A stretch of DNA of 32,000 nt, taken from positions 90,001 to 122,000 of the forward strand of contig ACYB01000020.1 of NCBI GenBank assembly GCA_000175855.1, given 5' to 3'. Positions 16,536-32,000 of the stretch are shown piece after piece. Within the stretch, counting starts at the first letter, position 1. Every line of letters starts with the position of its first letter. The translations under genes were made by a program, and so were the position numbers. The DNA comes from Raphidiopsis brookii D9 (GTDB lineage: Bacteria; Cyanobacteriota; Cyanobacteriia; Cyanobacteriales; Nostocaceae). The notes below the pieces were generated by a model. The model worked only from the letters and a program-made list of their open reading frames with translations. It made no database searches and was not told where the DNA came from.

Positions 16536-16573
16536 TCATTAGTTAACCAACATCTGAAAAACAACCCCCTAAT

Positions 16574-17317
16574 ATGGCCATACCCCTACTTGAATACAAA
16601 CCCAGTTCTCAAAATCAAAGAGTACCTGGTTACGAAGTACCTAATGAAGACACCCCCAGAATTTACCGCATAGAAGATTATGCTTTTACTGGCGAAGTGG
16701 AAGAGTTAATTTGGGCAGCTTATAGACAATTGTTTAGCGAACATGTAATTCTCAAATTCTACCGTCAAGGCAATTTAGAATCCCAGTTAAAAAACAAAGC
16801 CATCACCGTGCGGGACTTCGTTCGAGGTTTGGCCAAATCCCAAGCTTTTGACGATTTAGTCATTAAGACCAATTCCAATTATCGGTTGGTAGAAATTGCA
16901 CTGAAACGGTTATTAGGTCGTGCTCCCTATAACAAGGAGGAAGAAATCGCTTGGTCGATTAAAATTGCCACCAATGGTTGGGATGGTTTTGTAGATGCTC
17001 TGGTAGATTCAGAGGAATATCAAAACAGTTTCGGTGAAAACATTATTCCTTACCAAAGACGGCGCTACAAAGATAGACCCTTTAATTTAGTCACACCTCG
17101 TTACGCCAACTACTGGCGTGATAAAATAGAAGCAGGACGTTACAAGCCTGGTAGCATTAGTGACTTTATGAAAATGGCTGCTTCGGTGAGTATCAGAACT
17201 GTCACCTATACACCTGTGAACACAGCTAACATCGCAATTCCTAAGACTACTAGGGAAACAGTACCTACAGGTATACCTGTGTCTATTAGCCCCAGTGCTA
17301 ACTTCCCCGTCAAATAA
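16574..17317 (+). CDS. cpcG: Phycobilisome rod-core linker CpcG, paralog 2 (247 aa)
   Basis: [17 protein letters not shown]... The linker-domain motifs match paralog 1; the C-terminal tail differs. Confidence 0.9.
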
Positions 17318-17386
17318 ATCCCCTAGGTGTGTAACCTAATGGGGGAAAATAATTAAAGTCAAATTTATCAATCAGAGGAATACAGC

Positions 17387-18148
17387 ATGGCACTGCCATT
17401 ACTTCAATACAAACCTACTACTCAAAACCACCGTGTTAGCAGTTTCGGTGTTGCTGATCAAAATGAGGATACACCTTACATCTACCGCTTGGAAGATGTT
17501 AGTTCTTATACTGACATTCAATCTATTATCTGGGCATCCTATCGCCAGATTTTCAGCGAGCACGAGATTTTAAAATTTAACCGCCAAATCACCTTAGAAT
17601 CTCAGCTCAAGACGGGTTCTTTGTCCGTTAGGGATTTTATTCGTGGGTTAGCTAAGTCTGAAGCTTTTTATCGTCTGGTTGTTTCTGTTAATAATAACTA
17701 TCGTTTAGTAGATATTACTCTCAGACGCCTACTAGGTCGTTCTGCTTACAACAAAGAAGAGGAGATAGCTTGGTCAATTGTCATTGGTACCAAGGGATTT
17801 GGTGGTTTTGTTGATGCTTTAGTTGATAGTGAAGAATATACTTCGAGTTTTGGTGACAATACGGTACCTTACCAGCGTAAACGGATGGAAGGTCGTCCCT
17901 ATAATTTAGTCACACCCCGTTATGGTGAGGACTTCCAAGAAACTGCGGGCACGGTCAGAACAGATTGGCGCTTTGTTTTGGCAAATTTCTACACCGAGAA
18001 AGCCAAATTAAAACGTCTCAAAGAAGGCGATCCAGGCAGATTTGCAGCTATGGCGGCTTCTGTGTCTCGTAAGGGCAATTATGCTCAAAGAATCTCTTCT
18101 TTTGATATTGATTATTTGAGTGCTGTTCCCTATCGCGGTAGACGCTAA
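17387..18148 (+). CDS. cpcG: Phycobilisome rod-core linker CpcG, paralog 3 (253 aa)
   Basis: [17 protein letters not shown]... Same linker domain, with a basic C-terminal tail ending in YRGRR. Confidence 0.9.
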
Positions 18149-18270: not shown

Positions 18271-18987
18271 TTACGGTGTTCGTTTCAGAGAACTTTCATG
18301 CCATTTTCCTAAAAGTAAATTTGAGAAGGCGGTCAAAATCAAAAATATCAAAATTCCTAGCGCACTAATCATTATTAAAGCCGCAAACATACGAGGAATT
18401 TGTAAATTATAACTAGCCATGAGCATTTGATAAGCTAATCCCGAATTAGTACCTCCACTTCCAGCAACAAATTCCGCAACTACAGCACCAATTAATGATA
18501 ACCCACCGCTAATCCGCAAGGCAGATAAAAAATAGGGTAGTGCACTGGGTAATCTTAAATAAACCATAGTTTGCCAGGGATTCGCTTTATAGAGACGAAA
18601 TAGATCCCGCAAGTTTGGATCAATGCTATTCAGTCCAAAAGTGGTATTAGAAATGATGGGAAAAAAGGCCACAATCCAAGCACAAAGTACCAAAGCAGCA
18701 AAGGTATTATTTCTCAGCCAAATAATAATTAAAGGCGCGATCGCCGCTATTGGCATTGTTTGCAGAATTACCGCATAGGGATATAAGCTTTTTTCAATCC
18801 ATTTGCTCTGAGCCATAATCATAGAAATTAATAACCCTAAAACTGCTGCATAAAAAAAAGCCACGACGGTAATTTTTATGGTAATCAGCAAAGCGGGAAA
18901 TAAAATAAACCAGTCACTAATTAAGGTTTGTATAATTCGACTGGGAGAGGGTAGAAGATAGGGAGGTATACCAGTAATTTTTACCAA
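18271..18987 (-). CDS. ABC importer permease, NitT/TauT (binding-protein-dependent inner-membrane component) family; the N-terminus is displaced by a frameshift
   Basis: 238 aa, polytopic, with ...IPPYLLPSPSRIIQTL... typical of SsuC/TauC-like permeases. The track ORF 18917..19099 encodes the missing first helix in another frame (see findings). Confidence 0.8.
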   Translation of the reverse strand: MVKITGIPPYLLPSPSRIIQTLISDWFILFPALLITIKITVVAFFYAAVLGLLISMIMAQSKWIEKSLYPYAVILQTMPIAAIAPLIIIWLRNNTFAALVLCAWIVAFFPIISNTTFGLNSIDPNLRDLFRLYKANPWQTMVYLRLPSALPYFLSALRISGGLSLIGAVVAEFVAGSGGTNSGLAYQMLMASYNLQIPRMFAALIMISALGILIFLILTAFSNLLLGKWHESSLKRTP

Positions 18988-19143
18988 AATCCCAGGTAAA
19001 TATGGCGAAAATTCCTACTCCAATTGGGGCGATAATATCTGGAGATAGTAAATTTTTAATTTGGAGTTTTTCAGAGAATAATTTTTTCAACCAACTCATA
19101 TAATTCTTTCTTCAGTTGTTTTAAATAAACACGAAATCTGCTC

Positions 19144-19914
19144 TTAACCCATGATTCCGGAGGATAATTCATGGGCTACTTGCTGACAATATTGGGAATA
19201 GACAAGGGAAGTACGAAATTCTTCCGAACGGGGATAGGGTTGGTCGATCACAATATCCGCCACTACTCGACCGGGACGAGGTGCCATGACCACCACCCGA
19301 TTGGATAAATAAACTGCTTCATAAATATTGTGAGTGACAAAAATAATTGTCCAACTTTGTTGACTCCATAAATTAAGTAACTCCACATTTAATTGAGTGC
19401 GGGTAATATCATCTAAAGACCCAAAAGGTTCATCCATAAGTAATACCATGGGAGAGGTGACTAAAGTTCTGGCGATCGATACCCGCATTTTCATCCCTCC
19501 AGAAAGCTGACGGGGATAAGATTGAGCAAACTTTTCTAACCCAACCAATTGTAGGGATTTGTTAATTGCCAGATCCGCCATATTTTTCGGGATTCTAGCT
19601 AATTTTAAGGGTAAACGAACGTTTTCCTGTACTGTAGCCCAGGGCATCAATGCCGGTTCTTGGAAGACAAAAGAGAGATTTTTTTGAGCAGTGAGATTGT
19701 GCCATTGAACTGTTCCTGAATTGTGATTAGTCAGTCCGGCAATAATCCTAAGTAAGGTACTTTTCCCACAGCCGGAAGGCCCTACCAAACTAACAAATTC
19801 ACCAGCATTAATCGTCAAATTTAAGTTAGTCAGAGCAAGGATATCATTGTCAAAAAACTTATTTATCTGACTTAAGGTAATCAAAGGTTGAGAATTCATC
19901 AGTGATTTTTTCAT
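19144..19914 (-). CDS. ABC importer ATP-binding protein (NitT/TauT family)
   Basis: Walker A GPSGCGKST, ABC signature LSGGMKMR, Walker B VLLMDEPF. Confidence 0.9.
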   Translation of the reverse strand: MKKSLMNSQPLITLSQINKFFDNDILALTNLNLTINAGEFVSLVGPSGCGKSTLLRIIAGLTNHNSGTVQWHNLTAQKNLSFVFQEPALMPWATVQENVRLPLKLARIPKNMADLAINKSLQLVGLEKFAQSYPRQLSGGMKMRVSIARTLVTSPMVLLMDEPFGSLDDITRTQLNVELLNLWSQQSWTIIFVTHNIYEAVYLSNRVVVMAPRPGRVVADIVIDQPYPRSEEFRTSLVYSQYCQQVAHELSSGIMG

Positions 19915-19989
19915 TCTATCTATTTGTTGACTCTCCCCACGCCTAAAGGGGATGCTCTGGTATATAATGGCTACATTAATTATATTAAG

Positions 19990-21030
19990 CTAGGAGTTTT
20001 TATAATAATCCATTCCCTTATTCACAAACCTGAGAGTATAAGCCTGTTTGTAATTTGTCTTGGCATCAACAATACCCACGGACACTAAATCTTTAAATAA
20101 AGTTTCCCAGCGTTGGTCGTTCATTGCCCCAATTCCCAAAGTTTTAGCATCTCCTGACATAATTACCTCATAAGCTTTTAGTTGATTAAGTCCATAATCC
20201 ATCAAATCTTCAGTCATTTCTGGGTTATCTTTTTTAATCAGTTTATTGGCGGGTTGAGGATTTTCCAGATAACTATACCATCCCTTAATTGATGCATCAA
20301 CAAACTGTTGCACTAAGTCTGGATTGGTTTCGACTAATTTTTTAGTAGTTTCTATGGTAAAAGCATAGGGATTATACACTGCATCAGCTAAGAGTAATAT
20401 ATTAGGTTTAAATCCACCTTCTTTTTCAATTGTATAAGGTTCGGATGTTAATAAACCTTGTTGGGCGGAATTTTTATCCAATAAAAAGGGGCTTACATTA
20501 AAATTATAAGGGCGTTTTTGGTCATCACTTAACCCATATTTTGCTTTGATTATCGGCCAATAGTCTACCCCGATACTGAGATAAATTGGTTTGCCTTTTA
20601 AGTCCTCAAACGAATCATTACCAACTCCAGGATGGGTTAATAAAACTTGGATTTCTTTTTGAAAAATAGAGGCAACAGTTATTTTTGGAATCTCTTGTTC
20701 TACGGCTTTAATGGCATTAAGACCGCCCCCAATTATGAAATCAACAACCCCTCCCATCAATAGTTGGGTTCCATTCGTTTGGGGACTACCCGGTTGAATG
20801 GTGACATCTAGTCCATATTGGCGATAAATTCCCTTTGCTACTGCTTGATAAAATCCACCATATTCTGCTTCCGCTTTCCAAGAAAGCAGAAGTTTAATAG
20901 ATTCGGCAGATTGTGAACTTGAAAATGTAGAACTTGACTGACTGCAACCGGTAGAAATGCTACCAGCCAAAGCTAAAGAACTCAGTTTGATGAATTGACG
21001 ACGTTTGAGTTGATAATATTTTTCCATCAT
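19990..21030 (-). CDS. ABC importer substrate-binding lipoprotein, NMT1/THI5-like (ThiY/SsuA-like) family
   Basis: The N-terminus KRRQFIKLSSLALAGSISTGC looks like a Tat-type RR motif plus a lipobox Cys. The body resembles NMT1/THI5-type periplasmic binding proteins. The substrate cannot be determined from the sequence. Confidence 0.8.
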   Translation of the reverse strand: MMEKYYQLKRRQFIKLSSLALAGSISTGCSQSSSTFSSSQSAESIKLLLSWKAEAEYGGFYQAVAKGIYRQYGLDVTIQPGSPQTNGTQLLMGGVVDFIIGGGLNAIKAVEQEIPKITVASIFQKEIQVLLTHPGVGNDSFEDLKGKPIYLSIGVDYWPIIKAKYGLSDDQKRPYNFNVSPFLLDKNSAQQGLLTSEPYTIEKEGGFKPNILLLADAVYNPYAFTIETTKKLVETNPDLVQQFVDASIKGWYSYLENPQPANKLIKKDNPEMTEDLMDYGLNQLKAYEVIMSGDAKTLGIGAMNDQRWETLFKDLVSVGIVDAKTNYKQAYTLRFVNKGMDYYKNS

Positions 21031-21258: not shown

Positions 21259-21909
21259 ATGAAAAACACATTAACACAGGAAGAATTAAATCAAATTATT
21301 CGAGAGGTGCAATCCTTAGAATTACGTCAGGAGTCAGAATTTGATCGAGAACAGATTCAGGAAATATTGAGGGAGTTGAACTTACCACCAGAATTATTAG
21401 ATCAGGCCTTAATTGGACTACATAATCGTCAAAGACTAGAAGTGAAAAAGCGCCGCAACAAATGGATAGTTATGGGTACAGTTAGTGTAGTTAGCGTAAT
21501 TGTTCTTGCCATAGGATTTTTTAATCAAAAACAGGCTAACTTGCTAACCAAGGTTTCTGTCCAACAGGATAAAATTGTTCTAAGTAGTCAACTAGATGCA
21601 AAAAATGTTACCATGGAGAAGATTATTCCCAAAGACGCTATTAATCCTCAATCCAACAGTGAGATTTTATATGTCGTAACCTTAAAAGATGCACCCCTGG
21701 GGAGAAAATTATCTATGAGCTGTAATTGGATAAATCCCCAGGGCGAAATTGTCAAGCAGAATAATTATCAAACTCGGGAAATTAAAACCTCTGTTTGGGA
21801 AACCCGCTGTCGTTATTCAGTGGATACTGATGTATCCACTGGTAATTGGCAAGTAGAGATGTTTCTGGAAAATCGAGAAATTAGCCAGGAACAGTTCGTC
21901 ATTAAATAA
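21259..21909 (+). CDS. Hypothetical single-pass membrane protein
   Basis: 216 aa. Helical acidic N-terminus, one TM helix (WIVMGTVSVVSVIVLAIGFF), and a beta-rich C-terminal domain. No recognisable motif. Confidence 0.55.
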   Translation: MKNTLTQEELNQIIREVQSLELRQESEFDREQIQEILRELNLPPELLDQALIGLHNRQRLEVKKRRNKWIVMGTVSVVSVIVLAIGFFNQKQANLLTKVSVQQDKIVLSSQLDAKNVTMEKIIPKDAINPQSNSEILYVVTLKDAPLGRKLSMSCNWINPQGEIVKQNNYQTREIKTSVWETRCRYSVDTDVSTGNWQVEMFLENREISQEQFVIK

Positions 21910-21948: not shown

Positions 21949-21978
21949 TTGACAGTTTATATGGTGAGATGCTAGAAT
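21949..21978 (+). promoter_or_regulatory. Sigma-70-type promoter candidate for the AsnB-like/LysA-like operon
   Basis: TTGACA (21949-21954), 18-nt spacer, TAGAAT (21973-21978). This is about 38 nt upstream of ATG at 22016. Confidence 0.45.
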
Positions 21979-22015
21979 AGCAGCGCGGCGAAGGCTTGGT
22001 ATATCAGGTAAATGT

Positions 22016-23851
22016 ATGAACAGGGAATCCCTTAAGGAAGGAAGCGTCAACAATCATATTATTGGATATTGTAGTGACAAGCAACAAGAAAAGCTAACCA
22101 GAAAGATCCAGGGTAGAAAAAAAACCATCAAAAATGGCAAATTTATTTGTGAAGTAATTGACATTGGATACAAAACGGTAGCTAGAAGAGGGAAAAAAAC
22201 CGCCAGAGGAGAGAATATTGATCATGTTATTGTCAGCATTTGTGCAGGGAGAATTGGCAATGCTGACATTTGGGTAAAGTGGGAACATAACAAGTTAATT
22301 TTGGGTAGAGAAATATTTGGCAGAGTTCCCTTATTTTGGACCTGTACAAAAGATGTTATTTGGTTTAGCTCCCAGTTACAATTACTTTTACAGATTCTGG
22401 ATAAATGGGAAATTTATCTTCCTAGTTTATATAGTTATTGTTGTTTCTCATATATAACTAATCCCCTAATGCCCGTGGAGGGAGTATTCTCTGTAATTGC
22501 GGGTCAAGAGATAGTTTTTAGTCTGGATAATCACTTTAATGAAGCAGGAAATATTCCCCCTAAGATTAATTCTCCTCAAGTTAGAACAACTTATCAATGG
22601 CGGGAAAATCCAGAGAAGATAACCGATGAAACAGTGGCAATTTACCAATTGCAGAACTTATTGAAAAATGCCATAGAAAACCAAGTTCAGGATTTAAATC
22701 ATGAACCTGTAGGAGTTTTTTTATCTGGTGGTTTAGACTCTTCTATAGTTGCTGCTTTGTTGGTAGAATCTGGAGTGAAAGTTCGTGCTTATGCTTTAGA
22801 CTTTGGTGAGTTTGGCACTTCTGAATATCCATACGCGCAAAAAGTAGCAGAGTTTTTGAACATACCTCTTGTGAAAGTTGATGTGAGTCCTAAAAATATT
22901 AAAAAAGCCATTATTCCTACAGTTAAAGCCCTAGATTTACCCTTCGGTGATGGTGTTACCGTTCCCCTATATTTAATCAATCAAATTGCCTCACAAGAAA
23001 CTCAAATTGTTTTTAATGGCGAAGGGGGAGATCAACTGTTTGCAGGTTGGACAAATAAACCCCTAATTGCTGCTGGCGTTTATCAAAATCAATATTCCCA
23101 ACATCCTGAAAATGCCAGTTTTATTCAACAATATCTACACACCTTTCATCGTCTATGGGGTTATGAATCCAAAGTATATCAGGCAGAAACTTATGACCAG
23201 ATTCGGCAATTAAATGCCCAAGAATGGCTATTAGATGCTCTCGATAGTCATTTTTGTCCTTCCTTGTTACATCGTCTGCGTCGTGCCAACTTAATGTTAA
23301 AAGGATCCCAAAATATTCACCCCCGTGCTACAGCCATTAGTTTTGCAAATGGTTTAAATGTGCGATCGCCATTTTGTGATTTAGCCCTAGCTGAATGGAC
23401 ATTTCAGCTATCCGGAGAATTGTGTTTACAAGGTGCTTGCGAGAAGTATATTCTCAAACGTGCTGTAGAAAATTGGCTACCAGCAGAAATTGTATGGAGA
23501 CAAAAGCGGGGTATGGGGGTTCCCCTGACTTCCTGGTGTTTAAATGATTTATGGTATGATCTGGGTAACTGGCTAAATCCAGGTATTCTAGGAGAAGAAA
23601 ATATTTTTTATCCCGATATAGGGATAAAAGTTATCACAGGAAAATTAGGAGGAAACATCCATGGGAGACGGATAGGTGAGATACTTTGGTTACTAATTAT
23701 GTGGCAACTTTGGTACACTCACGTTTTTGGTGTTAACCCGACAGCAACGTCTAGCAAAAAGTCCAGCAATCATCCATTTTTACTACCCTATTGGTTATGG
23801 AAAGGATACAGAAAGTTCACCGAAAATCTGATGGAGAGTCTCCCGGTTTAG
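22016..23851 (+). CDS. Asparagine synthetase (AsnB) family protein lacking the N-terminal Cys nucleophile; adenylating PP-loop enzyme of unknown substrate
   Basis: 611 aa. PP-loop VGVFLSGGLDSS, then FNGEGGDQLFAGW, then SPFCD...EKYILKR...LPAEIVWRQKRG, which aligns with E. coli AsnB (VPFLD...EKHILRE...LPASVAWRQKEQ). The N-terminus is MNRESLKEG..., not MCG... Confidence 0.8.
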   Translation: MNRESLKEGSVNNHIIGYCSDKQQEKLTRKIQGRKKTIKNGKFICEVIDIGYKTVARRGKKTARGENIDHVIVSICAGRIGNADIWVKWEHNKLILGREIFGRVPLFWTCTKDVIWFSSQLQLLLQILDKWEIYLPSLYSYCCFSYITNPLMPVEGVFSVIAGQEIVFSLDNHFNEAGNIPPKINSPQVRTTYQWRENPEKITDETVAIYQLQNLLKNAIENQVQDLNHEPVGVFLSGGLDSSIVAALLVESGVKVRAYALDFGEFGTSEYPYAQKVAEFLNIPLVKVDVSPKNIKKAIIPTVKALDLPFGDGVTVPLYLINQIASQETQIVFNGEGGDQLFAGWTNKPLIAAGVYQNQYSQHPENASFIQQYLHTFHRLWGYESKVYQAETYDQIRQLNAQEWLLDALDSHFCPSLLHRLRRANLMLKGSQNIHPRATAISFANGLNVRSPFCDLALAEWTFQLSGELCLQGACEKYILKRAVENWLPAEIVWRQKRGMGVPLTSWCLNDLWYDLGNWLNPGILGEENIFYPDIGIKVITGKLGGNIHGRRIGEILWLLIMWQLWYTHVFGVNPTATSSKKSSNHPFLLPYWLWKGYRKFTENLMESLPV

Positions 23852-25086
23852 TTACAGATCCAACTACGAGTCCCACCATACCTTTTTCCTTAGAATTGGC
23901 TGAGGAATTGTTAGGTACTTATGGCTCTCCTCTGTACGTTTACGATAGCGACATTTTAAATCAAACCATTGCCCATATTACCAAGTCCTTTAAATATCCC
24001 GAAACCAGATTTTATTTTGCCACTGTCACCAATGGTAATATTGCCCTGTTGAAAGTTTTTAAAAATGCCCATTGGGGACTACATGCGAACACACCGGGAG
24101 ATATTTATTTAGGGTTAAGTGCAGGGTTTGCACCCGATAGCATTATATATAGCGGTACTAACTTAAATCGGGAGGAGATAGAGCAGGTATTAAGTTGGGG
24201 TGTAACTACCCTAAATTTGGATAGTCTTGCCCAAGTGCAATTGTTATGTGAAGTTTGTTCATCTCTTAAAAATACAGCAGGAAAAGGGAAAAACTTAAAT
24301 ACATTTAGTCGATTAAACCAGTTAGATATTGGACTGCGGTTAAATGTTGGAGGAGAGAGTCGAATTGGGGTGAGATTACAAGACTTTAACACAGCGATTG
24401 CTATAGCCAAAAATGTGGGATTGGAGATTTCAGGTTTACATTTTTATCGAGGTACAGGAACTAATGCGACCAAAGCATTCACCGATGCAATTGATGAAGT
24501 TTTAGTAGCTGCTCAAAATTTACCACACTGGAAATATATAGACTTTGGTGGTGGTTTTGGTTATCCCTATAATCACCAAGGAATTGCTTTTGATTGGGAA
24601 TTATTTGGAGGAGAGATCATTCAAAGAATTAGTAACTTAGATAGAACAATCAAATTAATCATTGAACCAGGACGTGCTGCTATAGCTAGTTGTGGTACTT
24701 TACTGGCCAAAGTTGTTTCAGTCAAATGGCAAGATAACAAGCAAATTTTAGGAGTAGATTCCACAGTTGGTAATATTGCTGTCCCCTCCGTTTATGGAGG
24801 TTATCGAGAAATTATTAGTTGGAAAAATCACAGTCCTAAATATATCACAGATATTTGTGGAAATACCACCTACTCACGGGATTATCTGGGTAAAAATTGC
24901 CAACTTCCCTCTCTAGAGATGGGAGATATTATCGGTATTTTAGACGTAGGTGCTTATGGTTATGCTATGTCCTCTCATTTTTTACATCGTCCTAAACCAG
25001 GAGAGGTATTATTGGAGAATAGTCAACATCGTCTAATTAGAAACCGGGAGGACTACAGTGTTTTATTGACTAATCAGATATGGTAA
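23797..25086 (+). CDS. Diaminopimelate decarboxylase (LysA) / fold-type III PLP-decarboxylase homolog with a substituted active-site lysine
   Basis: GSPLYVYD, DFGGGFGYPY, EPGRAAIA, DVGAYGYAMSS and HRLIRNRE align along the full length of E. coli LysA. Start is ATG at 23797 (or TTG at 23791), which overlaps the upstream gene by 55-61 nt. Confidence 0.8.
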   Translation: MERIQKVHRKSDGESPGLVTDPTTSPTIPFSLELAEELLGTYGSPLYVYDSDILNQTIAHITKSFKYPETRFYFATVTNGNIALLKVFKNAHWGLHANTPGDIYLGLSAGFAPDSIIYSGTNLNREEIEQVLSWGVTTLNLDSLAQVQLLCEVCSSLKNTAGKGKNLNTFSRLNQLDIGLRLNVGGESRIGVRLQDFNTAIAIAKNVGLEISGLHFYRGTGTNATKAFTDAIDEVLVAAQNLPHWKYIDFGGGFGYPYNHQGIAFDWELFGGEIIQRISNLDRTIKLIIEPGRAAIASCGTLLAKVVSVKWQDNKQILGVDSTVGNIAVPSVYGGYREIISWKNHSPKYITDICGNTTYSRDYLGKNCQLPSLEMGDIIGILDVGAYGYAMSSHFLHRPKPGEVLLENSQHRLIRNREDYSVLLTNQIW

Positions 25087-25111
25087 TAGTTATTATTTTC
25101 AAGTGTTGGGC

Positions 25112-25150
25112 TAGATTACTGTAGATTACTTTAGATCAATCAAGATTACT
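25112..25150 (+). repeat. Four tandem 10-bp-phased direct repeats (tagattact-like) immediately upstream of the 25157 start codon
   Basis: tagattact (25112-25120), tagattact (25122-25130), tagatcaat (25132-25140) and aagattact (25142-25150). Confidence 0.7.
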
Positions 25151-25156
25151 AAAACC

Positions 25157-26461
25157 ATGAAATGTGTAAACTGCGGAACTGATAACAAGCTAAGGGACAG
25201 AAAAGAAAGGAATGGAAGATGTAAACAATGTCATCACCAGTTCACTTTTGAACCAACAGATATGGGAGCGGTAAAAATTACAGATGCCATGTTTTCTAAA
25301 ACGTTGGCTGATATCTCTGTCAATCATACGTTACATTTTACAAATAAACAGTTTTTATATTTTTTAGATAGTCGTCTGAAGAAGAAAGCATTTAAATCCT
25401 CTGGTTTTTGGATACTGTACTTTTCGTTGAGTATTTTCCTAGCATCTATTTTTGGAATAGTGGGCAATTTAATTTTGCAAGTGTTATTTGTTACTTACTT
25501 ATTTCTCCTTGCTCAGTCCAATAAACTTGATAGTTTTACTCGCAGAAATAGTGCCAAGAGATTGGTGTTTGTTGGCGTATTCATCTTAATATTTAGCACA
25601 TTATTGTGGTGGTCATCTTACAATGTAAACTTGATTTTTTATTCCTTCACCTTTTTAGGAATCTTGTCAGTATTATTGGGAATACTCCAATTAGTCAGGA
25701 TTAAAAATTCACGAGACTTAGGATATGATAGTCAAGAATTTTTAATTACTCAGTCAAATGTCAATGATTGGTTAGCAAGATGGCAATTATTGAATGGCAA
25801 AGTTGATAAAATCTTACCGGAAACACCAACCGAAATTGAAGCAGCATCTATTAATCCAGAAATAACCGCTTACAGTTTTGATAGACTAGTGGTTTGTAGT
25901 AGTCCCAGTATAGCTCAAGTGTTAATTGCTAATAACTTACATTTTGAGCATAATTGTGCAATTTTAAGTATGAATGGTTATCCTGAAAATATTTTTGGGA
26001 TAACCATGGAAATGTTAAAAAGAAACCCTAATTTACAGATTTTTGCTTTACATGATTGTAGTCCTGAAGGTGTGAGTTTAGTAAATTATATTCGCACCGA
26101 TGAAAATTGGTTTTTAAATAGTCAACTCCCCATTATTGATATTGGGTTATTACCAAGACAAATTCTAGGCAATAAGGGAGGAATGTTTATACAAAATACA
26201 GCTACCTCAGCGGAAAAATCCAAGAACTTACCCATGGAAATTCGTCAAACTCTATCTGCTCAAGAATTAGCTTGGTTAGATGCTGGTAACTTTATCGAGT
26301 TAGAATCCTTTTCACCACAAACATTGATTCAAGTGATTAGAAATGCTATTTCTAGAAGTTTTGATTTAGTACCTGATAGTAATGGTTTATTAGTAATCAG
26401 CGATCCAGTTAATTATGTTGATACTAATAATAGTATTTACATGATTGAAAGTTTTGGTTAA
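25157..26461 (+). CDS. Zn-ribbon membrane protein with an uncharacterised C-terminal cytoplasmic domain
   Basis: 434 aa. N-terminal CxxC-15 residues-CxxC (CVNCGTDNKLRDRKERNGRCKQC), about four hydrophobic helices (residues roughly 85-180), and a soluble C-terminal domain of about 230 aa with no motif I can name. Confidence 0.6.
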   Translation: MKCVNCGTDNKLRDRKERNGRCKQCHHQFTFEPTDMGAVKITDAMFSKTLADISVNHTLHFTNKQFLYFLDSRLKKKAFKSSGFWILYFSLSIFLASIFGIVGNLILQVLFVTYLFLLAQSNKLDSFTRRNSAKRLVFVGVFILIFSTLLWWSSYNVNLIFYSFTFLGILSVLLGILQLVRIKNSRDLGYDSQEFLITQSNVNDWLARWQLLNGKVDKILPETPTEIEAASINPEITAYSFDRLVVCSSPSIAQVLIANNLHFEHNCAILSMNGYPENIFGITMEMLKRNPNLQIFALHDCSPEGVSLVNYIRTDENWFLNSQLPIIDIGLLPRQILGNKGGMFIQNTATSAEKSKNLPMEIRQTLSAQELAWLDAGNFIELESFSPQTLIQVIRNAISRSFDLVPDSNGLLVISDPVNYVDTNNSIYMIESFG

Positions 26462-26476
26462 GTTTATACATAAAAT

Positions 26477-28213
26477 TCATCGTTGGGATTTATTGACCTG
26501 TAACCAAATTTCTAAACTAACCAACAACCATAATTTCACACCATATCTTCCCCAAGTATCACCTTGAAAATCCAACCAGTTACGGATAATATCCTGATTT
26601 ATATAGTTGGCAATTTCACCGTTTTTGTTCAATAACAATTTTCTGGCTTGTTTTTGCCAATATTTTCTAAACCCTAATTGTACGGGAACCATCATACCAC
26701 TTTTAGGACGCTGAATGATTTCCTTAGGCAAAATATTACTGACCGCGTTTTTAAAAACGGCTTTTTCCTCAACTCCTGAAAGTTTATACTCCGGAGGAAT
26801 TTGCATACTAAAATCAACTATACGCCGATCAAATAGAGGTGATAACCCTTGCAAACCAGCTCCTTGAGTGAGATTATTAACCTTGGTTAAAATATGGTCT
26901 GCTCCCTTAAATTTGATATTTAATATCATTAATCTGTTGAGATAATTTATCTTAGCATTTAAATCATCAACAAATACACAGGGTTGGTTTACTAGAGTCT
27001 GCCAAACTTCAGTTTTTAGCAGTTGCGGTAGGTCTAGAGCGCATTTTTGAAAAGATATTAAATAGGCTTTTAAAGAATCTTGATGATTAATTCTACTATA
27101 TAAACTATTAATCAACATTGGTTGATTTTTGGGTCCACCAAAACAGGGATCTCCCCCTTCTCCATTCAAGATAATTTGCACATTTTCTCTAGCCAATTTG
27201 CCCAACAATAAATTTGGTACTGTCAATGGGTCACCTATAGGGTTATCCAGATATAACATAGTTTGTGGTAAAAGTTCCCACATTTGTTTAAATGTAATTT
27301 CTAAAATGTGATGTTCGGTTTGACAATGTTGGGCAACTAAACTAGAAAATTCGAGTTCGTTAGGTGTTTCGGTGCCAAAATGAATGGAATATGTATGAAC
27401 TGGTGAATTATGAAATTTTCTGGTCAATGCTGTAATACTACTAGAATCCAATCCACCGGAGAGAAATACTCCCACGGGTTGATTTTCAGGTAAATATTCT
27501 TTGACAACTTGTTCCAGTAAACAACGTAATTTTTCACCATACCATTCCAGAGGTTGATATGGTTCTATAATATTCTCTTTTAATTGCCAATAATGAGTAA
27601 TTTCATGGGATGGAATTTTTAAAAATGTCCCTTGAGCAATTTCTTGCACATTTTGCCAAAGTGTCTTTGTTCCGGGAACAAATGCACAACATAAATAATC
27701 TCGTAATGCAATTAGATCCAACTGATGGTAGTGGTAAGGTGCAAGAGTTGTTAATTTAGGAGCTATGTAATATGTGCCACGATCAAGAGTGTAATATAAA
27801 TTCTTTTTCCCTATGGCATCCCTAATCAAGTATAATTCTTGTTGGTTCCTATCCCAAATGACAATATTAAACATTCCCAATAACATGGTCAATGATTGAT
27901 GGTTGTATTTTTCCCACAGTTGGGCTACTATTTGTTGATCACTAATTTCAGTATGATTATCAAGACATAACTTTTCTAAAAGTTGCCAGCGATTACTCAA
28001 CCATATATCACCCATGATAATAAATCTTTGCTTGGGACTAACACTGAAATTCTCTGAGGAAACAAAGGCGATTTTTCGATCTTGCCAAATTATCTTCTCC
28101 CTTGATTTATTGATCTCATCCAGGTTACCATAGACCACAAACCAACTGGGAATTAAGTCAAGATGTCCCGGTGGGAATTGACGATTTGGTCCAAGTTTAA
28201 AAAACATTCTCAC
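26477..28213 (-). CDS. Second asparagine synthetase (AsnB) family protein lacking the N-terminal Cys nucleophile
   Basis: 578 aa. A GATase-2-like fold is retained (MGDIWLSNRWQLLEKL, GMFNIVIWDRNQQELYLIRDAIGKKNLYY), but the N-terminus is MRMFFKLG... PP-loop VGVFLSGGLDSS and LNGEGGDPCFGG are present. Confidence 0.8.
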   Translation of the reverse strand: MRMFFKLGPNRQFPPGHLDLIPSWFVVYGNLDEINKSREKIIWQDRKIAFVSSENFSVSPKQRFIIMGDIWLSNRWQLLEKLCLDNHTEISDQQIVAQLWEKYNHQSLTMLLGMFNIVIWDRNQQELYLIRDAIGKKNLYYTLDRGTYYIAPKLTTLAPYHYHQLDLIALRDYLCCAFVPGTKTLWQNVQEIAQGTFLKIPSHEITHYWQLKENIIEPYQPLEWYGEKLRCLLEQVVKEYLPENQPVGVFLSGGLDSSSITALTRKFHNSPVHTYSIHFGTETPNELEFSSLVAQHCQTEHHILEITFKQMWELLPQTMLYLDNPIGDPLTVPNLLLGKLARENVQIILNGEGGDPCFGGPKNQPMLINSLYSRINHQDSLKAYLISFQKCALDLPQLLKTEVWQTLVNQPCVFVDDLNAKINYLNRLMILNIKFKGADHILTKVNNLTQGAGLQGLSPLFDRRIVDFSMQIPPEYKLSGVEEKAVFKNAVSNILPKEIIQRPKSGMMVPVQLGFRKYWQKQARKLLLNKNGEIANYINQDIIRNWLDFQGDTWGRYGVKLWLLVSLEIWLQVNKSQR

Positions 28214-28282
28214 TCCTTACTATTGCTTAACCTGTTGGTGTAACCTTTAGTATAACTAATCAAACTAATCATTTAACCTAAA

Positions 28283-29020
28283 ATGAATGATCAAAACATG
28301 ATCAAAACAATTTTCGTTCCCCAGGGATCAGAGTACCAAGCTGTTTATCGTGGATTAAATTCTGTGTTCAGGAATTCTGTCTCTAATTCAAAGATACAAG
28401 TCATTGGCATACCTATGGGCATTTCATCACTTCAAGAATTCCTCACAAGGAAATATCAACACCTAAAGCAATCAAATCAAAGAATATTACTTATGGGACT
28501 ATGTGGTAGTCTCCACGGAAGTTATCGTGTGGGTGATACTGTATTATATGAAAAGTGTATATATGATAAAAAACAATTAGATAAGACAAATCCAGTAAAC
28601 TCAATAAATCAAATAAACTGCGACATTAGTTTAACTCAAGATATATATGAGCGTATTGGAAATAGGGTATCGTTAGTGAGGGGAATAACAAGTGATACAG
28701 TAGTTTTTAAATCCTCTGAAAAACGGAGTCTACATCAAAAATTTGGTGCTGATGTGGTGGACATGGAAGGATTTGGGTTCCTAGAGTTTTTCCAGGGAAC
28801 AGGGATATCCACCGCAATACTAAGAGTTGTTAGTGATGATTCAATTCATGACATACCAGACTTGACCAAAGCTATCAACTCCCAAGGTTTACTGGAGATC
28901 TTACCTTTAGTAATCACTTTAACTCGACAACCTATAGCTGCTAGTCACTTAATTAGGGGTTCACTATGCGGATTAAAGCAATTAGAGACAGTAACTAGGT
29001 GTTTAGCAATTCAGGAGTAA
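28283..29020 (+). CDS. PNP/UDP-phosphorylase superfamily protein (MTA/SAH-nucleosidase-like)
   Basis: 245 aa. FVPQGSEYQAV, LLMGLCGSL, VVDMEGFG and LRVVSDD resemble the MTAN/futalosine-hydrolase-type motifs (E..., ME, SD). Confidence 0.65.
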   Translation: MNDQNMIKTIFVPQGSEYQAVYRGLNSVFRNSVSNSKIQVIGIPMGISSLQEFLTRKYQHLKQSNQRILLMGLCGSLHGSYRVGDTVLYEKCIYDKKQLDKTNPVNSINQINCDISLTQDIYERIGNRVSLVRGITSDTVVFKSSEKRSLHQKFGADVVDMEGFGFLEFFQGTGISTAILRVVSDDSIHDIPDLTKAINSQGLLEILPLVITLTRQPIAASHLIRGSLCGLKQLETVTRCLAIQE

Positions 29021-29101
29021 GTCCCTGAAATACCCAACAAATCAGGGACAGGCAAAATTGAAGCAAATTCAGTTCTTTAACAATCACTATTAAATGAATC
29101 A

Positions 29102-29233
29102 TCAAATTGCTGATAGTAGTATTTGAGAATCAAAAAACATTTTAAAAGAATCATTAGGGACAAGTTGACGCAGATGCTGAATATAGCCATCCATATCTGA
29201 CTTACTGCGAAAGCGAGCAACAATACGCTGCAT
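29102..29233 (-). CDS. Possible small ORF (43 aa) downstream of the HlyD gene
   Basis: Not in the ORF track. ATG at 29233..29231 to TGA at 29104..29102 reads MQRIVARFRSKSDMDGYIQHLRQLVPNDSFKMFFDSQILLSAI. No clear Shine-Dalgarno sequence. It could be a chance ORF. Confidence 0.2.
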   Translation of the reverse strand: MQRIVARFRSKSDMDGYIQHLRQLVPNDSFKMFFDSQILLSAI

Positions 29234-29304
29234 TAGGTTAAGTAAGAAATAGGCGTTCAGTCTAGCACTAGTTGCCAAAAGTTAGCAAGTGGATAACTAG
29301 TTAA

Positions 29305-30870
29305 TTACCTTACTTTCTGTAAGCTCTCAAATTGATTAGTAAACACATCCGTAAACAAACTCATAACGCTCCTTTCCTCACGCACTTTGATATTGGCAGT
29401 AATGGCCATACCAGACTGTAAAGCAATAGTTCTACCTTGAGATTCTATAGTTTGTTTATTTAAACTAACCCGCGCTGGAAAGCGATAAAACTGATGGGTC
29501 TGGTCAGGAGGTAAAGCATCTGAACCGATATTAGTTACTTTACCTTTGATATCGCCAAACTCAGTAAAGGGGAAGGAATCAATTCTCACATCCACCTTCA
29601 TTCCCTCCTTCACAAATCCAATATCCTTATTGGTGATAAATACCTCTGCTATATATTTATCATTGGGGACAATCTGGAGTAACTTTTGTGTTGGGTTAGC
29701 CACAAAACCTGGGTTTTTTGCCTGCATATCAAATATTATACCTGACACGGGAGCACGAAGTTCTTGATATTTGACGTTTAATTTTGTCTGGGAAATTTTA
29801 CTGTTAATGTCTGACAATCTCTGTTCATTTTCTAAAATTATTCTCATAAATTGGCTGTCTATTTCCGCCATTCGCTTTTTGTTAGTAGCTATCTGTTCCA
29901 ACACGTTCTTATCGGTGACTGCTACAGTGTTAGCTACCTCTTGTTGTGCCCTTTGAATATCAAACTGTAGACGCTTTTCTTCTTCCAACAACTGAGCTAT
30001 TTCCGCTTTCAAGTTTTGCACCTGCTGTTGCTGATTGAGATATTGCAGTTGAGAAATACCTCCCTCTTTGGCGAGGACTTCTACCCTATGTAAGATTCCT
30101 TGTTGAATTGATAGACTGTTCTGTGTATCCTTTCTCTTCACTATTGTTTGAGATAGTTGTTTCTTAATTTTTTCTACCTCGAATTTGGCCGCATTGGAGC
30201 GAGATTCTAATTCTTTTCTAGCTACAATTAGTCTTTGTTGCTCATCAATTCCTCCTCCTACTTGCGCGTTGGAATTTCCCAGTTGTGAACGTAACAATTG
30301 ATTTTCTTCTACTAGAGAAATCCGACTTTTTAATAGAAATGCTGCTTCTGCTGGTAGACCACCACCCAGAAAATTCAATTCTGAACTGACAGCACTACTT
30401 GCATTCATCAAACGACGATAGATGTCATTCTCCCTGATTAAAACAGCACGAACGTTATTGAGAGATCCGAGCTCAGCTCGGGTAGCAATGGATTCAAATG
30501 TTAATAGTAGATCTCCCTTTTTCACCTCCTGTCCATCCTTGACATGAATAGACTCTACCACACCACTAATAGGTGCTTGTACATCCTTTACCGTACCCTC
30601 TGGTTTTAATTGTCCTGTAGCGGGAACTACTTGTTCAATTTTTGCATAATAAGCCCAACCCACGCCAAAACAGGCCACAAGCATCAAGGTAATCATGATT
30701 GTGCGTGACCAAATGGGTGATTGTCGTAAAACTATGGATTGTTCAAAGCTGTCTTGATAAGCATGACTTAAATTCCCTGCTTTGGCTTTTGATAGGGTTT
30801 GAAGTACCCCCAGATTAGTATTTTTACCATTACTATTGCCTATTGGATGATCGTTATTAAATTGAGTCAT
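29305..30870 (-). CDS. HlyD-family periplasmic adaptor (membrane fusion protein) of a type I / bacteriocin-type exporter
   Basis: 521 aa. N-terminal TM helix (IMITLMLVACFGVGWAYYA), a lipoyl-like hairpin (VKDGQEVKKGDLLL), a long coiled coil and a C-terminal beta-barrel. Lies 28 nt downstream of the ABC gene. Confidence 0.9.
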   Translation of the reverse strand: MTQFNNDHPIGNSNGKNTNLGVLQTLSKAKAGNLSHAYQDSFEQSIVLRQSPIWSRTIMITLMLVACFGVGWAYYAKIEQVVPATGQLKPEGTVKDVQAPISGVVESIHVKDGQEVKKGDLLLTFESIATRAELGSLNNVRAVLIRENDIYRRLMNASSAVSSELNFLGGGLPAEAAFLLKSRISLVEENQLLRSQLGNSNAQVGGGIDEQQRLIVARKELESRSNAAKFEVEKIKKQLSQTIVKRKDTQNSLSIQQGILHRVEVLAKEGGISQLQYLNQQQQVQNLKAEIAQLLEEEKRLQFDIQRAQQEVANTVAVTDKNVLEQIATNKKRMAEIDSQFMRIILENEQRLSDINSKISQTKLNVKYQELRAPVSGIIFDMQAKNPGFVANPTQKLLQIVPNDKYIAEVFITNKDIGFVKEGMKVDVRIDSFPFTEFGDIKGKVTNIGSDALPPDQTHQFYRFPARVSLNKQTIESQGRTIALQSGMAITANIKVREERSVMSLFTDVFTNQFESLQKVR

Positions 30871-30898
30871 AAGGATTTTTCGGGTTGATGATTGAGTA

Positions 30899-32000
30899 TT
30901 AAAGATTGACTTCCTGTTGCTGGTAAAGGTAGAAATAGTGTCCTTTAGCAGTCATTAGTTTTTGGTGACTACCCTGTTCCACAACTCTACCGCCATCCAT
31001 GACTACAATTGTATCTGAATTGCTCACAGTATTGAGACGGTGAGTGATAAAGAAAACAGTTTTGCCCTGGAATGCTTTAGCCAAGTTCAAGCATATTTGC
31101 CTTTCTGTGGGATAGTCTAGGGCACTTGTGGCTTCATCTAAAACTAATATTTTAGGTTTTTGCAGTATGGAACGAGCAATGGCTATTCTTTGTCTTTGTC
31201 CTCCAGACAGGTTCGACCCTTTTTCCCCAACTTTGGTGTTATAACCATTGGAGAGATTCATGATAAATTCATGAGCAACTGCTATTTGAGCTGCTTCCAC
31301 CACTTCCTCCGTGGTGGCGTCAGGATTGGTTAGGGCTATATTATCGAATACTGTTCCATCAAATAATAGAGTATCTTGGGGAACCACACCGATTTGTCTT
31401 CTGACGGAATAAAGCTCAACCTTGCTGATGTCGTAACCATCAATAAAAATTCTCCCAGACTCAGTATTATAAAGTCTCAGGAGTAATTTCATCATGGTAC
31501 TTTTTCCTGACCCACTTTGTCCCACAATGCCCACAAATGTGCCCGCTGGAAAATCTAAACTGACGTTATTTAGTTGCAGGGATCCGTTTGTCGCAAAGCG
31601 GAAGCAAACATTTTCATATTTGACTGCACCAACAACACTGGGTAAGGGAATATTATCTTTGTCTACTTCTGCTTCCTGAGGTGTGTCCACAATATCACTC
31701 AATCTCTCCAGGGATAATCCTGTTTCTTGGAAGTTTTGCCAGATTTGTGCCAGTCTCAATATGGGACTGGTAACATAACTAGAAATAATTCTAAAAGCAA
31801 TTAATTCCCCTAGAGTTAATTCTCCTTGTAAAACTAAATAAGCTCCTACCCATAATACTAACAAGCTACTTAGTTTATTGAGAAACTGACTAGTAGAATT
31901 AGCTAATGTTGATGTAATAACTGTTTTAAAACCTGCGGAAACAAACTTAGCATAACGCTCTTGCCAAGAAAAGCGCGATCGCAGTTCAATATTTTGGGCC
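30899..32000 (-). CDS. ABC exporter (fused TMD-NBD, HlyB/bacteriocin-exporter type), C-terminal part; the gene continues off the right edge
   Basis: Walker A GQSGSGKST, signature LSGGQRQR, Walker B ILVLDEATSALD. The frame stays open upstream of the track start (31864) through position 32000, reading TMD sequence. Any N-terminal C39 or cNMP domain would lie outside the window. Confidence 0.9.
   Translation of the reverse strand, partial: AQNIELRSRFSWQERYAKFVSAGFKTVITSTLANSTSQFLNKLSSLLVLWVGAYLVLQGELTLGELIAFRIISSYVTSPILRLAQIWQNFQETGLSLERLSDIVDTPQEAEVDKDNIPLPSVVGAVKYENVCFRFATNGSLQLNNVSLDFPAGTFVGIVGQSGSGKSTMMKLLLRLYNTESGRIFIDGYDISKVELYSVRRQIGVVPQDTLLFDGTVFDNIALTNPDATTEEVVEAAQIAVAHEFIMNLSNGYNTKVGEKGSNLSGGQRQRIAIARSILQKPKILVLDEATSALDYPTERQICLNLAKAFQGKTVFFITHRLNTVSNSDTIVVMDGGRVVEQGSHQKLMTAKGHYFYLYQQQEVNL

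Follow-up and report, generated by a model that had tools for sequence, protein, structure and literature searches.

The system at the Raphidiopsis brookii D9 locus

A 32,000-nucleotide (nt) stretch of the Raphidiopsis brookii D9 genome, positions 90,001 to 122,000 of contig ACYB01000020.1, was analyzed and is referred to here as the window. The functional unit at the locus under study is a conserved five-gene system that consists of hyp216, AsnB1, a LysA-fold protein that has lost the Schiff-base lysine of its family (Lys-less), ZnTM, and AsnB2. The first four genes form one block on the plus strand, and AsnB2 converges on it. A small membrane protein is encoded by hyp216 (21259-21909, +). 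AsnB1 (22016-23851, +), the ortholog of the paralog called AsnB-a in distant genomes, encodes a 611-residue protein with a Pfam Asn_synthase domain. The LysA-like gene (23791-25086, +) encodes a protein resembling the decarboxylases of the alanine-racemase fold (Pfam Orn_Arg_deC_N and Orn_DAP_Arg_deC). ZnTM (25157-26461, +) is a membrane protein with a zinc ribbon, a transmembrane (TM) bundle, a Toprim domain, and an acidic tail. AsnB2 (26477-28213, -), the ortholog of AsnB-b, encodes the second Asn_synthase protein and faces ZnTM.

A preliminary description of this locus, made from the sequence alone, did not include hyp216, the fifth member, which lies outside the coordinates it covered. The gene layout, promoter-like site, and convergent gap that it gave were all found in place when the open reading frames (ORFs) were mapped and the sequence was searched for promoter-like sites. 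The stop codons of ZnTM and AsnB2 are separated by exactly 15 nt (26462-26476). The LysA-like ORF overlaps the 3' end of AsnB1 by approximately 55-61 nt, and its probable ATG start is at position 23797, in agreement with the 429-residue protein called on a near-identical contig (L086). The promoter candidate (21949-21978, +) is a sigma-70-like site, TTGACA-18-TAGAAT with a TG extension, located 38 nt 5' of the AsnB1 start. It had the top score in the region (11/12), but since the region contains 41 promoter-like sites compared to 40.2 expected from shuffled sequences, it is suggestive only. hyp216 and AsnB1 are just 3-6 nt apart in several relatives, so transcripts that begin at hyp216 may also cover the operon.

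Conservation of the system in Nostocales

The GTDB was scanned with a ZnTM alignment, and relatives were found in 374 species. The best 80 of the 374 were inspected and all belong to the Nostocales. Among the loci of these species and others collected before the scan, 75 had at least 4.5 kb of sequence upstream of ZnTM and 60 had full flanks, and these served as denominators. AsnB1 was upstream of ZnTM in 75/75 loci, the LysA-like gene in 74/75, and an ortholog of hyp216, directly 5' of AsnB1, in 74/75. All three were colinear upstream of ZnTM in 73 of the 75. The sole adequately flanked locus without a LysA-like gene between AsnB1 and ZnTM is that of Iningainema tapete (L037, 7588-11314).

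An AsnB2 ortholog was located at most 10 kb from ZnTM in 27 of the 60 full-flank loci. It was downstream and convergent in 18 of these, upstream on the same strand in eight, and upstream on the opposite strand in one. At least two of the unlinked genomes, Sphaerospermopsis BCCUSP55 and Cronbergia UHCC 0137, have AsnB2 on another contig, and orthologs are also named from Aerosakkonema and Microcoleus. The AsnB2 protein of the window is 99% identical to a C. raciborskii protein, and its ZnTM is 93% identical to the ortholog of Raphidiopsis BLCC-F218. A look-up of the exact ZnTM sequence of the window returned no entry.

There was no mobile-element or island context at the locus; its composition resembles that of the flanks and the synteny is fixed. 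Also, the gene families common to 85 related loci included no conserved small ORF, nonribosomal peptide synthetase (NRPS), or lasso B-protein, in agreement with the lack of a precursor ORF, NRPS, or lasso B-protease reported in the preliminary description. Neighborhoods annotated with Pfam likewise showed no precursor-peptide or B-protein gene. Throughout an order, the system has been kept by vertical descent at one fixed place in the chromosome, unlike a specialized-metabolite cluster.

The preliminary description had grouped the two AsnB homologs, the LysA-like gene, and the zinc-ribbon gene with a nucleosidase-like gene and an exporter. This grouping was only partly borne out by co-occurrence. 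AsnB1, the LysA-like gene, and the zinc-ribbon gene are colinear in essentially every Nostocales locus and AsnB2 recurs, but the nucleosidase and the exporter do not travel with them. Features that it missed are hyp216, the Toprim fold, the invariant C-terminal Phe-Gly of ZnTM, and the distribution of the system beyond cyanobacteria.

Distribution beyond cyanobacteria

A metagenome scan seeded with distant Lys-less members of the LysA fold returned 86 LysA-type genes. An AsnB-like gene was present in the locus of 6/17 Lys-less genes compared to 0/69 genes that contain the lysine (Fisher p = 2.6e-5, with loci that are not all independent). In one of the loci (L098, GC content 55-69%), an SH3b protein gene is followed in a row by genes for a Lys-less LysA-like protein, AsnB-a, a ZnTM homolog, and AsnB-b, arranged as one operon. 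The first gene of this row (5911-7797) encodes a 628-residue Pro/Ala-rich protein with bacterial SH3 domains and precedes the operon where a recognizable hyp216 homolog would be. A search with the L098 ZnTM yielded 924 relatives, and the named ones were from metagenome-assembled genomes of Blastocatellia and Vicinamibacteria (Acidobacteriota).

Two other contigs, L173 and L174, carry AsnB-a, ZnTM, and AsnB-b with 4-nt overlaps, and a LysA-like gene was absent within 10 kb in both. A soil lineage is represented by ten contigs (L175-L184, GC content 65%), the shorter of which are truncated. The long contigs (e.g. L175-L179) contain overlapping genes for a Lys-less LysA-like protein, a 140-residue hyp216 homolog (hmmsearch E = 1e-33), AsnB-a, ZnTM, and AsnB-b. 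The deepest core of the system is the pair of AsnB paralogs flanking ZnTM, in the order AsnB-a, ZnTM, AsnB-b. Because the five-gene set recurs in Nostocales and in high-GC soil-bacterial contigs, it is ancient and cohesive, even though its gene order is mobile.

Two further arrangements were observed. A second recurrent architecture (L092, 1-2888; L094; L095, 107-3818) consists of overlapping genes for an AsnB-b-like protein, a protein of approximately 240 residues, and a Lys-less LysA-like protein. It is without a ZnTM homolog, and a gene for a 166-residue protein comes next in L092. A potassium-channel-like gene (TrkA_N/Ion_trans_2) was found near the system in two high-GC lineages (L174, 333-2099; L175, 2383-3549), which may be a coincidence.

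Both AsnB paralogs retain the adenylation motifs and lack the glutaminase nucleophile

AsnB1 matched Asn_synthase with E = 5e-58 and has a 37-residue remnant of GATase_7. AsnB2 matched the two domains with E = 2.4e-69 and E = 6e-16, respectively, and keeps a partial GATase fold. Both proteins fell under the cut-off of the AsnB model TIGR01536 (267.1 bits), AsnB1 reaching 174.6 bits and AsnB2 232.8. On the lasso cyclase model NF033535, which has a cut-off of 525, AsnB1 scored 44.3 bits and AsnB2 178.1 bits, and the L173 proteins scored 143.7 (AsnB-a) and 113.1 (AsnB-b) bits. Weak PP-loop matches to QueC, MnmA, and NAD synthase were also seen, with the QueC-type matches covering the PP-loop alone. 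Eight proteins of the window were scanned in this way, and none but HlyD, a component of the neighboring exporter, reached a curated NCBIfam cut-off.

The PP-loop motif SGGLDSS and the NGEGGD motif, whose GEGGD is the counterpart of Glu348/Asp351 of AsnB, are kept in at least 95% of the orthologs of both paralogs. The same holds in AsnB1 for SGGLDSS together with NGEGGDQLFAGW, and the RQKRGMGVP/RPKSGMMVP region is likewise kept in at least 95% of orthologs. These adenylation motifs hold in cyanobacteria and in distant phyla. In contrast, no conserved N-terminal Cys nucleophile was found in 80 AsnB1 or 34 AsnB2 orthologs. The window proteins start with MNRESLK (AsnB1) and (V)RMFFKLG (AsnB2), and neither has Cys at position 2. 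The degenerate N-terminal domain of AsnB1 differs in both length and sequence among the 80 orthologs, up to a conserved LILGRExFG block.

The AsnB-a proteins of other phyla differ at this end. They begin with a conserved (M/V)SGICG(W/Y/F)VG stretch (L173, 8247-10004; L174, 8250-10004; L175, 5256-7004; L098, 9203-10948), which could be a four-residue propeptide ahead of the cysteine of an N-terminal nucleophile (Ntn) enzyme. The SGICG region has been wholly lost from AsnB1 of Nostocales.

The hyp216 protein starts with a helical region, crosses the membrane once, and finishes with a C-terminal domain of approximately 125 residues in which two Cys are kept in at least 95% of orthologs. Searches of Pfam, NCBIfam, and PADLOC gave no match to it.

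The Lys-less LysA-fold protein has a remodeled pocket

The LysA-like protein scored 246.1 bits on the LysA model TIGR01048, compared to a cut-off of 297.9, and aligned end to end with the diaminopimelate (DAP) decarboxylase 2p3e (E = 1.8e-46). The Schiff-base Lys position is occupied by Val79 (FATVTNGN compared to YAVKANFN of 2p3e). Further differences from 2p3e are the changes of HxHIGS to HFYRGT (His to Tyr219), CESGD to TTYSRD, and RPxxY to VPSVY, while the Gly-rich phosphate loop (GGG) and the EPGR and GAYG motifs are kept. Val79 is invariant in 81 orthologs, and the Tyr219, TTYSRD, and VPSVY replacements are invariant or nearly so. Because these replacement residues are so strongly conserved, the remodeled pocket appears to be a re-tooled site under selection and not a product of decay. 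From the residues present, the protein is predicted to be unable to form an aldimine with pyridoxal phosphate (PLP).

The losses reported by eye in the preliminary description held when they were rechecked by alignment: the Schiff-base Lys is missing from the LysA homolog, and both AsnB homologs keep SGGLDSS without the Cys nucleophile, a pattern strongly conserved in their orthologs. Its suggestion of a DAP- or Lys-like substrate was weakened by the replacement of RPxxY with VPSVY and of CESGD with TTYSRD. The RPxxY stretch of DAP decarboxylase binds the distal carboxylate.

A full-library HMMER search was conducted with the LysA-like protein, and the Lys-less clade made up 37/124 full-length top representatives. 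Its members share coordinated changes (Lys to Met/Val/Phe, Lys of KFG to Arg, His to Tyr, Ser to Thr, and Tyr to Phe). A relocated or substitute catalytic Lys was sought in this clade, and none was found. Some Lys-less proteins that bear TTYSRD are fused to an S-adenosylmethionine (SAM)-dependent methyltransferase (P0146) or to a spermidine-synthase domain (P0238), which hints that members of the clade may handle SAM-related or polyamine-related ligands. Another relative, 39% identical, is encoded without an AsnB gene in a natural-product-like cluster (L088, 1-17278) that contains a thioesterase/peptidyl carrier protein, four sulfotransferases, methyltransferases, a B12-radical-SAM enzyme, an AMP-binding enzyme, and a carrier protein. 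The contexts of the distant Lys-less relatives are heterogeneous, and no common partner was found among them except AsnB-like genes.

One possible explanation for these losses is that the five proteins form a largely non-catalytic complex, in which the edited AsnB and LysA homologs are ligand sensors or adaptors that control ZnTM without any new covalent chemistry. The nucleophile lost from both AsnB proteins, the degenerate AsnB1 N-terminal domain of variable length, and the loss of the Schiff-base Lys, the stacking His, and CESGD from the LysA homolog would all fit such a complex. However, ATP-pyrophosphatase motifs kept in at least 95% of orthologs are the pattern of active adenylating enzymes, and the pocket of the LysA-fold protein is invariant and polar (His, Tyr, Arg, Thr, and Ser), suggesting a new active site. 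We consider a complex of pseudoenzymes improbable.

ZnTM carries a Toprim domain and an invariant C-terminal Phe-Gly

An AlphaFold2 model of ZnTM was built from a mixed-phylum alignment, with a mean predicted local distance difference test score (pLDDT) of 86.7 and a predicted template modeling score (pTM) of 0.83. A Nostocales-only alignment gave a poor C-terminal domain (pLDDT 58), and this model was not used. According to the model and the alignment, residues 1-78 comprise a CxxC...CxxC zinc ribbon and a helical domain, and residues from approximately 81 to 187 form a helical TM bundle. These are followed by an alpha/beta domain of the Topo VI-A/Spo11 Toprim type (residues from approximately 239 to 403, nt 25871-26365) and by an acidic, disordered tail (residues 407-434, nt 26375-26458) with pLDDT below 50. 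Because the number of TM helices is even, the zinc ribbon and the tail should be on the same side of the membrane, presumably the cytoplasmic side, where soluble AsnB-type enzymes sit.

The model was compared to the PDB with Foldseek, and the top nine matches were all Topo VI-A or Spo11 (probability 0.98-1.0). The match to 1d3y (Topo VI-A) had E = 3.7e-4 and a probability of 1.0, and that to 2zbk_A covered 177 columns with a root-mean-square deviation of 5.2 Å. The long Foldseek alignments had deviations of 16-20 Å and gave no reliable superposition of the CAP domain. The Pfam model of this Toprim domain, PF21180, was matched by 47/47 Nostocales orthologs (best E = 1.5e-7), and the window protein scored 18 bits compared to a gathering threshold of 24.1. 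A PDB profile search with ZnTM gave just a marginal Topo VI-A match (E = 1.8). Asp248 lies after beta1, where Toprim domains have Glu, and Asp300 after beta3 corresponds to the first Asp of the DxD motif, of which the second Asp is lost (HDCS/HDAT). Tyr68, Tyr239, and Tyr275 are invariant, and no counterpart of the catalytic Tyr of the 5Y-CAP domain was identified in ZnTM. From the predicted structure, we are confident that ZnTM carries a Toprim fold.

The tail ends in Phe-Gly in 237/240 ZnTM homologs, across phyla, and this pair is preceded by Asp/Glu/Gln and one further residue. In contrast to this motif, the tail linker is hypervariable, being either Gly/Ser/Asp-rich or short. The tail contains no Lys, and an example of the tail peptide is LIGDSGNDIYMVESFG.

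Toprim domains usually handle Mg2+ and phosphodiester or nucleotide chemistry. A second explanation for the system is that it targets nucleic acids. In this case, ZnTM would be a membrane-bound protein that binds or cuts DNA or RNA, and its PP-loop partners would alter a nucleobase or nucleotide in the manner of TilS, QueC, and other PP-loop enzymes, in a housekeeping or a defense role. The acidic residues at the metal positions of the Toprim domain, the DNA-cleaving activity of all of its top structural neighbors, the N-terminal zinc ribbon, and the weak QueC, MnmA, and NAD-synthase PP-loop matches could be explained in this way. On the other hand, the synthetase domains are full-length Asn_synthase domains, a carboxylate-activating family, whereas the QueC-type matches are confined to the PP-loop. 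The second Asp of DxD is gone, the 5Y-CAP catalytic Tyr was not identified, PADLOC gave a PP-loop match to QueC alone, and a mobile-element or island context is lacking. This explanation is also quite unlikely in our judgment. The narrower idea of a defense island was dropped, given that PADLOC returned no model beyond the QueC PP-loop, the synteny is fixed, and the composition is unremarkable.

The exporter and other neighbors are not part of the system

Next to the system are a nucleosidase-like gene (28283-29020, +; Pfam PNP_UDP_1), HlyD (29305-30870, -; Pfam HlyD_3), and the gene for an ATP-binding cassette (ABC) exporter (30899 to beyond 32000, -; Pfam ABC_tran), which runs past the end of the window. 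The nucleosidase and the HlyD/ABC exporter are unrelated neighbors outside the functional unit. HlyD is a true member of TIGR01843 (223.7 bits compared to a cut-off of 208.65), and an identical sequence is present on the near-identical contig NBYN01000022. The ABC gene is full length on L086 (5253-8264) and encodes a 1003-residue protein with an N-terminal cyclic-nucleotide-binding domain, a weak C39-like region, and the ABC membrane and ATPase domains. The preliminary description had proposed that the exporter be checked for a C39 peptidase. The weak C39-like region answers to this, but by eye its catalytic Cys position reads Asn-Ser-Thr and the Cys is apparently lacking. This suggests that the C39-like domain is non-proteolytic, as in HlyB-type type I secretion.

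The exporter is approximately 2.8 kb from the ZnTM stop and approximately 1.1 kb from the nucleosidase-like gene. At the locus of the closest relative, Raphidiopsis BLCC-F218, HlyD/ABC is replaced by unrelated genes, and HlyD was present in 0/60 full-flank Nostocales loci. A 58-residue ORF between the nucleosidase and HlyD (29102-29278, -) corresponds to the C-terminal three quarters of a conserved 78-residue small protein, with the first 20 or so codons replaced in the window. In Raphidiopsis BLCC-F218 and Anabaena cylindrica, the gene for the intact protein (MPQDTGYKNTK...RFRSKSDADGYIQHLRQL...) follows that for the nucleosidase. Because the junction gene has lost its N-terminal 20 or so codons, a recent rearrangement at 29102-29278 probably joined the HlyD/ABC block to the locus.

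These findings bear directly on the model put forward in the preliminary description, in which a secreted amide, lactam, or lasso-like product is made from a DAP/Lys-like or peptide substrate and exported by HlyD/ABC. Lasso cyclases and the beta-lactam and carbapenam synthetases are among the Cys-less relatives of AsnB and are weakly matched by AsnB2, and an exporter with a C39-like region does lie close to the system in the window. However, the export of a product is contradicted by the missing HlyD/ABC in the nearest relative and in 60/60 full-flank loci, and by a junction that looks recently rearranged. The lasso cut-off of 525 was not approached, and a conserved precursor ORF, a B-protease or RiPP recognition element (RRE; RiPP, ribosomally synthesized and post-translationally modified peptide), and an NRPS were all lacking. 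Vertical conservation at a fixed position and the apparent lack of the C39 catalytic Cys also speak against it. An exported product is, thus, very improbable.

The nucleosidase-like protein scored 64.3 bits on the hopanoid-related model TIGR03468 (HpnG), compared to a cut-off of 187.1. Its gene is a lineage-specific neighbor that was present in 6/60 full-flank loci, and in Aphanizomenonaceae it neighbors AsnB2. A hopanoid link through this gene was dropped, as no conserved neighborhood supports it. A link to the phycobilisome was considered because the locus follows the cpc operon in the window. It was rejected, since cpcG was within 10 kb in just 9/60 full-flank loci.

On the other side of the system, hyp216 is separated from the last phycocyanin linker gene (17387-18148) by a three-gene ABC importer (18271-21030, -). 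The importer genes encode an ABC ATPase, an NMT1/SsuA-like binding protein, and a 238-residue product that is probably the permease. In Raphidiopsis BLCC-F218, hyp216 directly adjoins the linker gene and, therefore, the importer is a strain-level insertion or deletion. The remainder of the window (213-18148) contains ordinary housekeeping genes: ribD, mreB-mreC-mreD, an aldo-keto reductase, DUF4359, cbiX, a tetrapyrrole methylase, a pseudouridine synthase, and the phycocyanin operon (cpcBA with linker and lyase genes).

A proposed role in amide-bond formation

We propose that the system forms amide bonds at the membrane. AsnB1 and AsnB2 would use ATP to activate a carboxylate as its adenylate, and would then join it to an amine, either ammonia or an organic one. 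This coupling would be independent of glutamine hydrolysis because the PP-loop domains are intact but the glutaminase nucleophile is absent. ZnTM would organize the two enzymes into a complex on the cytoplasmic side of the membrane. The LysA-fold protein would act without PLP, either as an enzyme or as a subunit that binds the amine or amino-acid partner. That the five-protein unit forms amide bonds in association with the membrane and independently of glutamine is a tentative reading, to which we assign a probability of roughly 0.4. Adenylation-driven amide formation had already been proposed in the preliminary description, and it is a reasonable reading of a pair of synthetase domains that keep the PP-loop intact but lack the glutaminase nucleophile.

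The most specific candidate for the substrate is the acidic tail of ZnTM itself, which ends in -(D/E/Q)-x-Phe-Gly-COOH. The tail could be amidated or ligated at its Asp/Glu side chains or at the terminal carboxylate, and ZnTM would then be a membrane-tethered carrier, scaffold, or switch. It is the conservation of the motif that points to the tail, and we regard its role as substrate as doubtful. A fuller version, in which ZnTM is a tethered carrier or scaffold, both AsnB ligases modify its tail, and the LysA-fold protein works without PLP on a tethered or incoming amino-acid-like group, is slightly more doubtful still.

Several points weigh against this interpretation. A docking or autoinhibitory role would account equally well for an invariant motif at the C-terminus, and the AlphaFold2 model shows no docked conformation of the ZnTM tail. 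AsnB-type enzymes adenylate side-chain or small-molecule carboxylates and are not known to adenylate the C-termini of proteins. The tail contains no Lys and, therefore, its ligation would require an external amine. The tail hypothesis also leaves the need for a Toprim domain unexplained. The LysA-like gene is absent from L173 and L174 (within 10 kb) and from the Iningainema tapete locus (L037), so the LysA-fold protein may be dispensable for the core reaction. Finally, if the xSGICG start of AsnB-a in other phyla is a processed Ntn nucleophile, then the ancestral system may be glutamine-dependent.

Another possible explanation is that the two AsnB-type enzymes amidate or ligate a small molecule, a lipid, or a cell-envelope precursor near the membrane. 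The target could be, for example, a peptidoglycan or exopolysaccharide intermediate carried on a lipid, a hopanoid polyol, or an amino-lipid. In this scheme, ZnTM and hyp216 would serve as scaffold or sensor, and the LysA-fold protein would bind an amino-acid-like moiety. The conserved set includes two membrane proteins, and a bacterial SH3-domain protein, of a kind that often binds the cell wall, precedes the L098 operon. LtsA/AsnB1, which are characterized AsnB paralogs, amidate meso-DAP in peptidoglycan. The best NCBIfam relatives include, although far under the cut-off, the amidotransferase and decarboxylase of the exopolysaccharide-linked XrtA/PEP-CTERM system. An HpnG-like nucleosidase neighbors AsnB2 in Aphanizomenonaceae, and distant Lys-less relatives occur in a biosynthetic cluster (L088) or fused to spermidine synthase or methyltransferases. 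However, the genes conserved beside the system in the lineages compared include no glycosyltransferase or flippase gene and no Mur, hopanoid, or lipid gene. The substrate-binding motifs of DAP decarboxylase are replaced, and the invariant Phe-Gly tail and the Toprim fold are left unexplained by this model. We judge modification of a small molecule or envelope precursor to be somewhat unlikely.

Significance and comparison with known systems

Every heterocystous cyanobacterium examined apparently has this core locus, including the bloom-formers Cylindrospermopsis/Raphidiopsis, Dolichospermum, and Aphanizomenon, and it recurs in abundant soil bacteria. The labels that its parts carry in databases (asparagine synthase, 7-cyano-7-deazaguanine synthase, diaminopimelate decarboxylase, and hypothetical protein) are misleading. 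The analysis also corrects the tempting but wrong inference of an exporter-linked natural-product cluster. Solving the system would assign a function to two AsnB paralogs that are unable to make asparagine in the classical way, and would give a first function to a large Lys-less branch of the alanine-racemase fold that is unable to use PLP in textbook style. It would also explain a membrane-anchored Toprim domain of the Topo VI-A/Spo11 type and could possibly reveal a new modification of a protein tail. If ZnTM were indeed a carrier, the system would represent a new protein-templated biosynthesis or post-translational switch, with a LysW-like or scaffold-peptide-like logic built from different parts and common to filamentous cyanobacteria and Acidobacteriota-like soil bacteria.

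The literature searched contained no description of the system, no curated NCBIfam cut-off was reached by its proteins, and PADLOC has no model of such a system. Its closest parallels are the Cys-less amide formers of the AsnB superfamily. Like the lasso cyclase (McjC type, NF033535), beta-lactam synthetase, and CarA, the AsnB proteins have a non-catalytic Ntn-like domain at the N-terminus, joined to an Asn_synthase PP-loop domain. The inferred chemistry is also shared: a carboxylate is adenylated at the expense of ATP and then converted to an amide, and no glutamine is hydrolyzed. CarA and beta-lactam synthetase match them weakly (E = 1e-10 to 1e-12). Unlike those systems, the locus lacks genes for a precursor peptide, a leader protease/RRE, and clavam/carbapenem partners, and it is a vertically inherited core locus in which two paralogs are always paired with a Toprim membrane protein.

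The XrtA/PEP-CTERM system provides the sole curated NCBIfam pairing of an AsnB-family protein (TIGR03108) with a LysA-fold protein (TIGR03099), and both models match adjacent genes here. The AsnB homologs scored 146.9 and 229.6 bits on TIGR03108, compared to a cut-off of 816.9, and the LysA-like protein scored 116 on TIGR03099, compared to 478.45. In contrast to the XrtA/PEP-CTERM loci, no exosortase, PEP-CTERM protein, acyl-CoA ligase, or acyl carrier protein is conserved nearby. The TblS/TabA pair of tabtoxin biosynthesis, which the preliminary description cited for its AsnB-type enzyme and LysA-like protein, stands as an analogy. The LysA-like protein shares its two-domain fold with LysA and other decarboxylases of the alanine-racemase fold, such as BtrK, FslC, and D-Orn/Lys decarboxylase. 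It differs from LysA in that the Schiff-base Lys, the stacking His, the Lys of KFG, CESGD, and RPxxY are all replaced, and it belongs to a separate and broad Lys-less clade.

ZnTM shares with Topo VI-A and Spo11 the Toprim fold, an acidic residue after beta1, and the first Asp of DxD after beta3. Unlike them, it is anchored in the membrane and its Toprim domain is preceded by a zinc ribbon and a TM bundle. It has Asp in place of Glu and DCS/DAT in place of DxD, and its Phe-Gly tail and its operon context of amide synthetases are unique. A further parallel is with LysW/ArgW, in which a zinc-ribbon module has an acidic C-terminal tail whose terminal motif is the covalent handle for an ATP-dependent amide ligase. 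LysW is a soluble protein of approximately 55 residues that ends in EDWGE and is loaded by the ATP-grasp ligase LysX. The likeness is an analogy only, since ZnTM is a membrane protein of 350-450 residues with a Toprim domain, ends in Phe-Gly, and has partners of the AsnB type. The combination of two AsnB paralogs, a membrane Toprim protein with an invariant Phe-Gly tail, and a Lys-less LysA-fold protein is an unprecedented architecture, and the system is an adenylating system of the AsnB superfamily rather than a lasso or RiPP export cluster.

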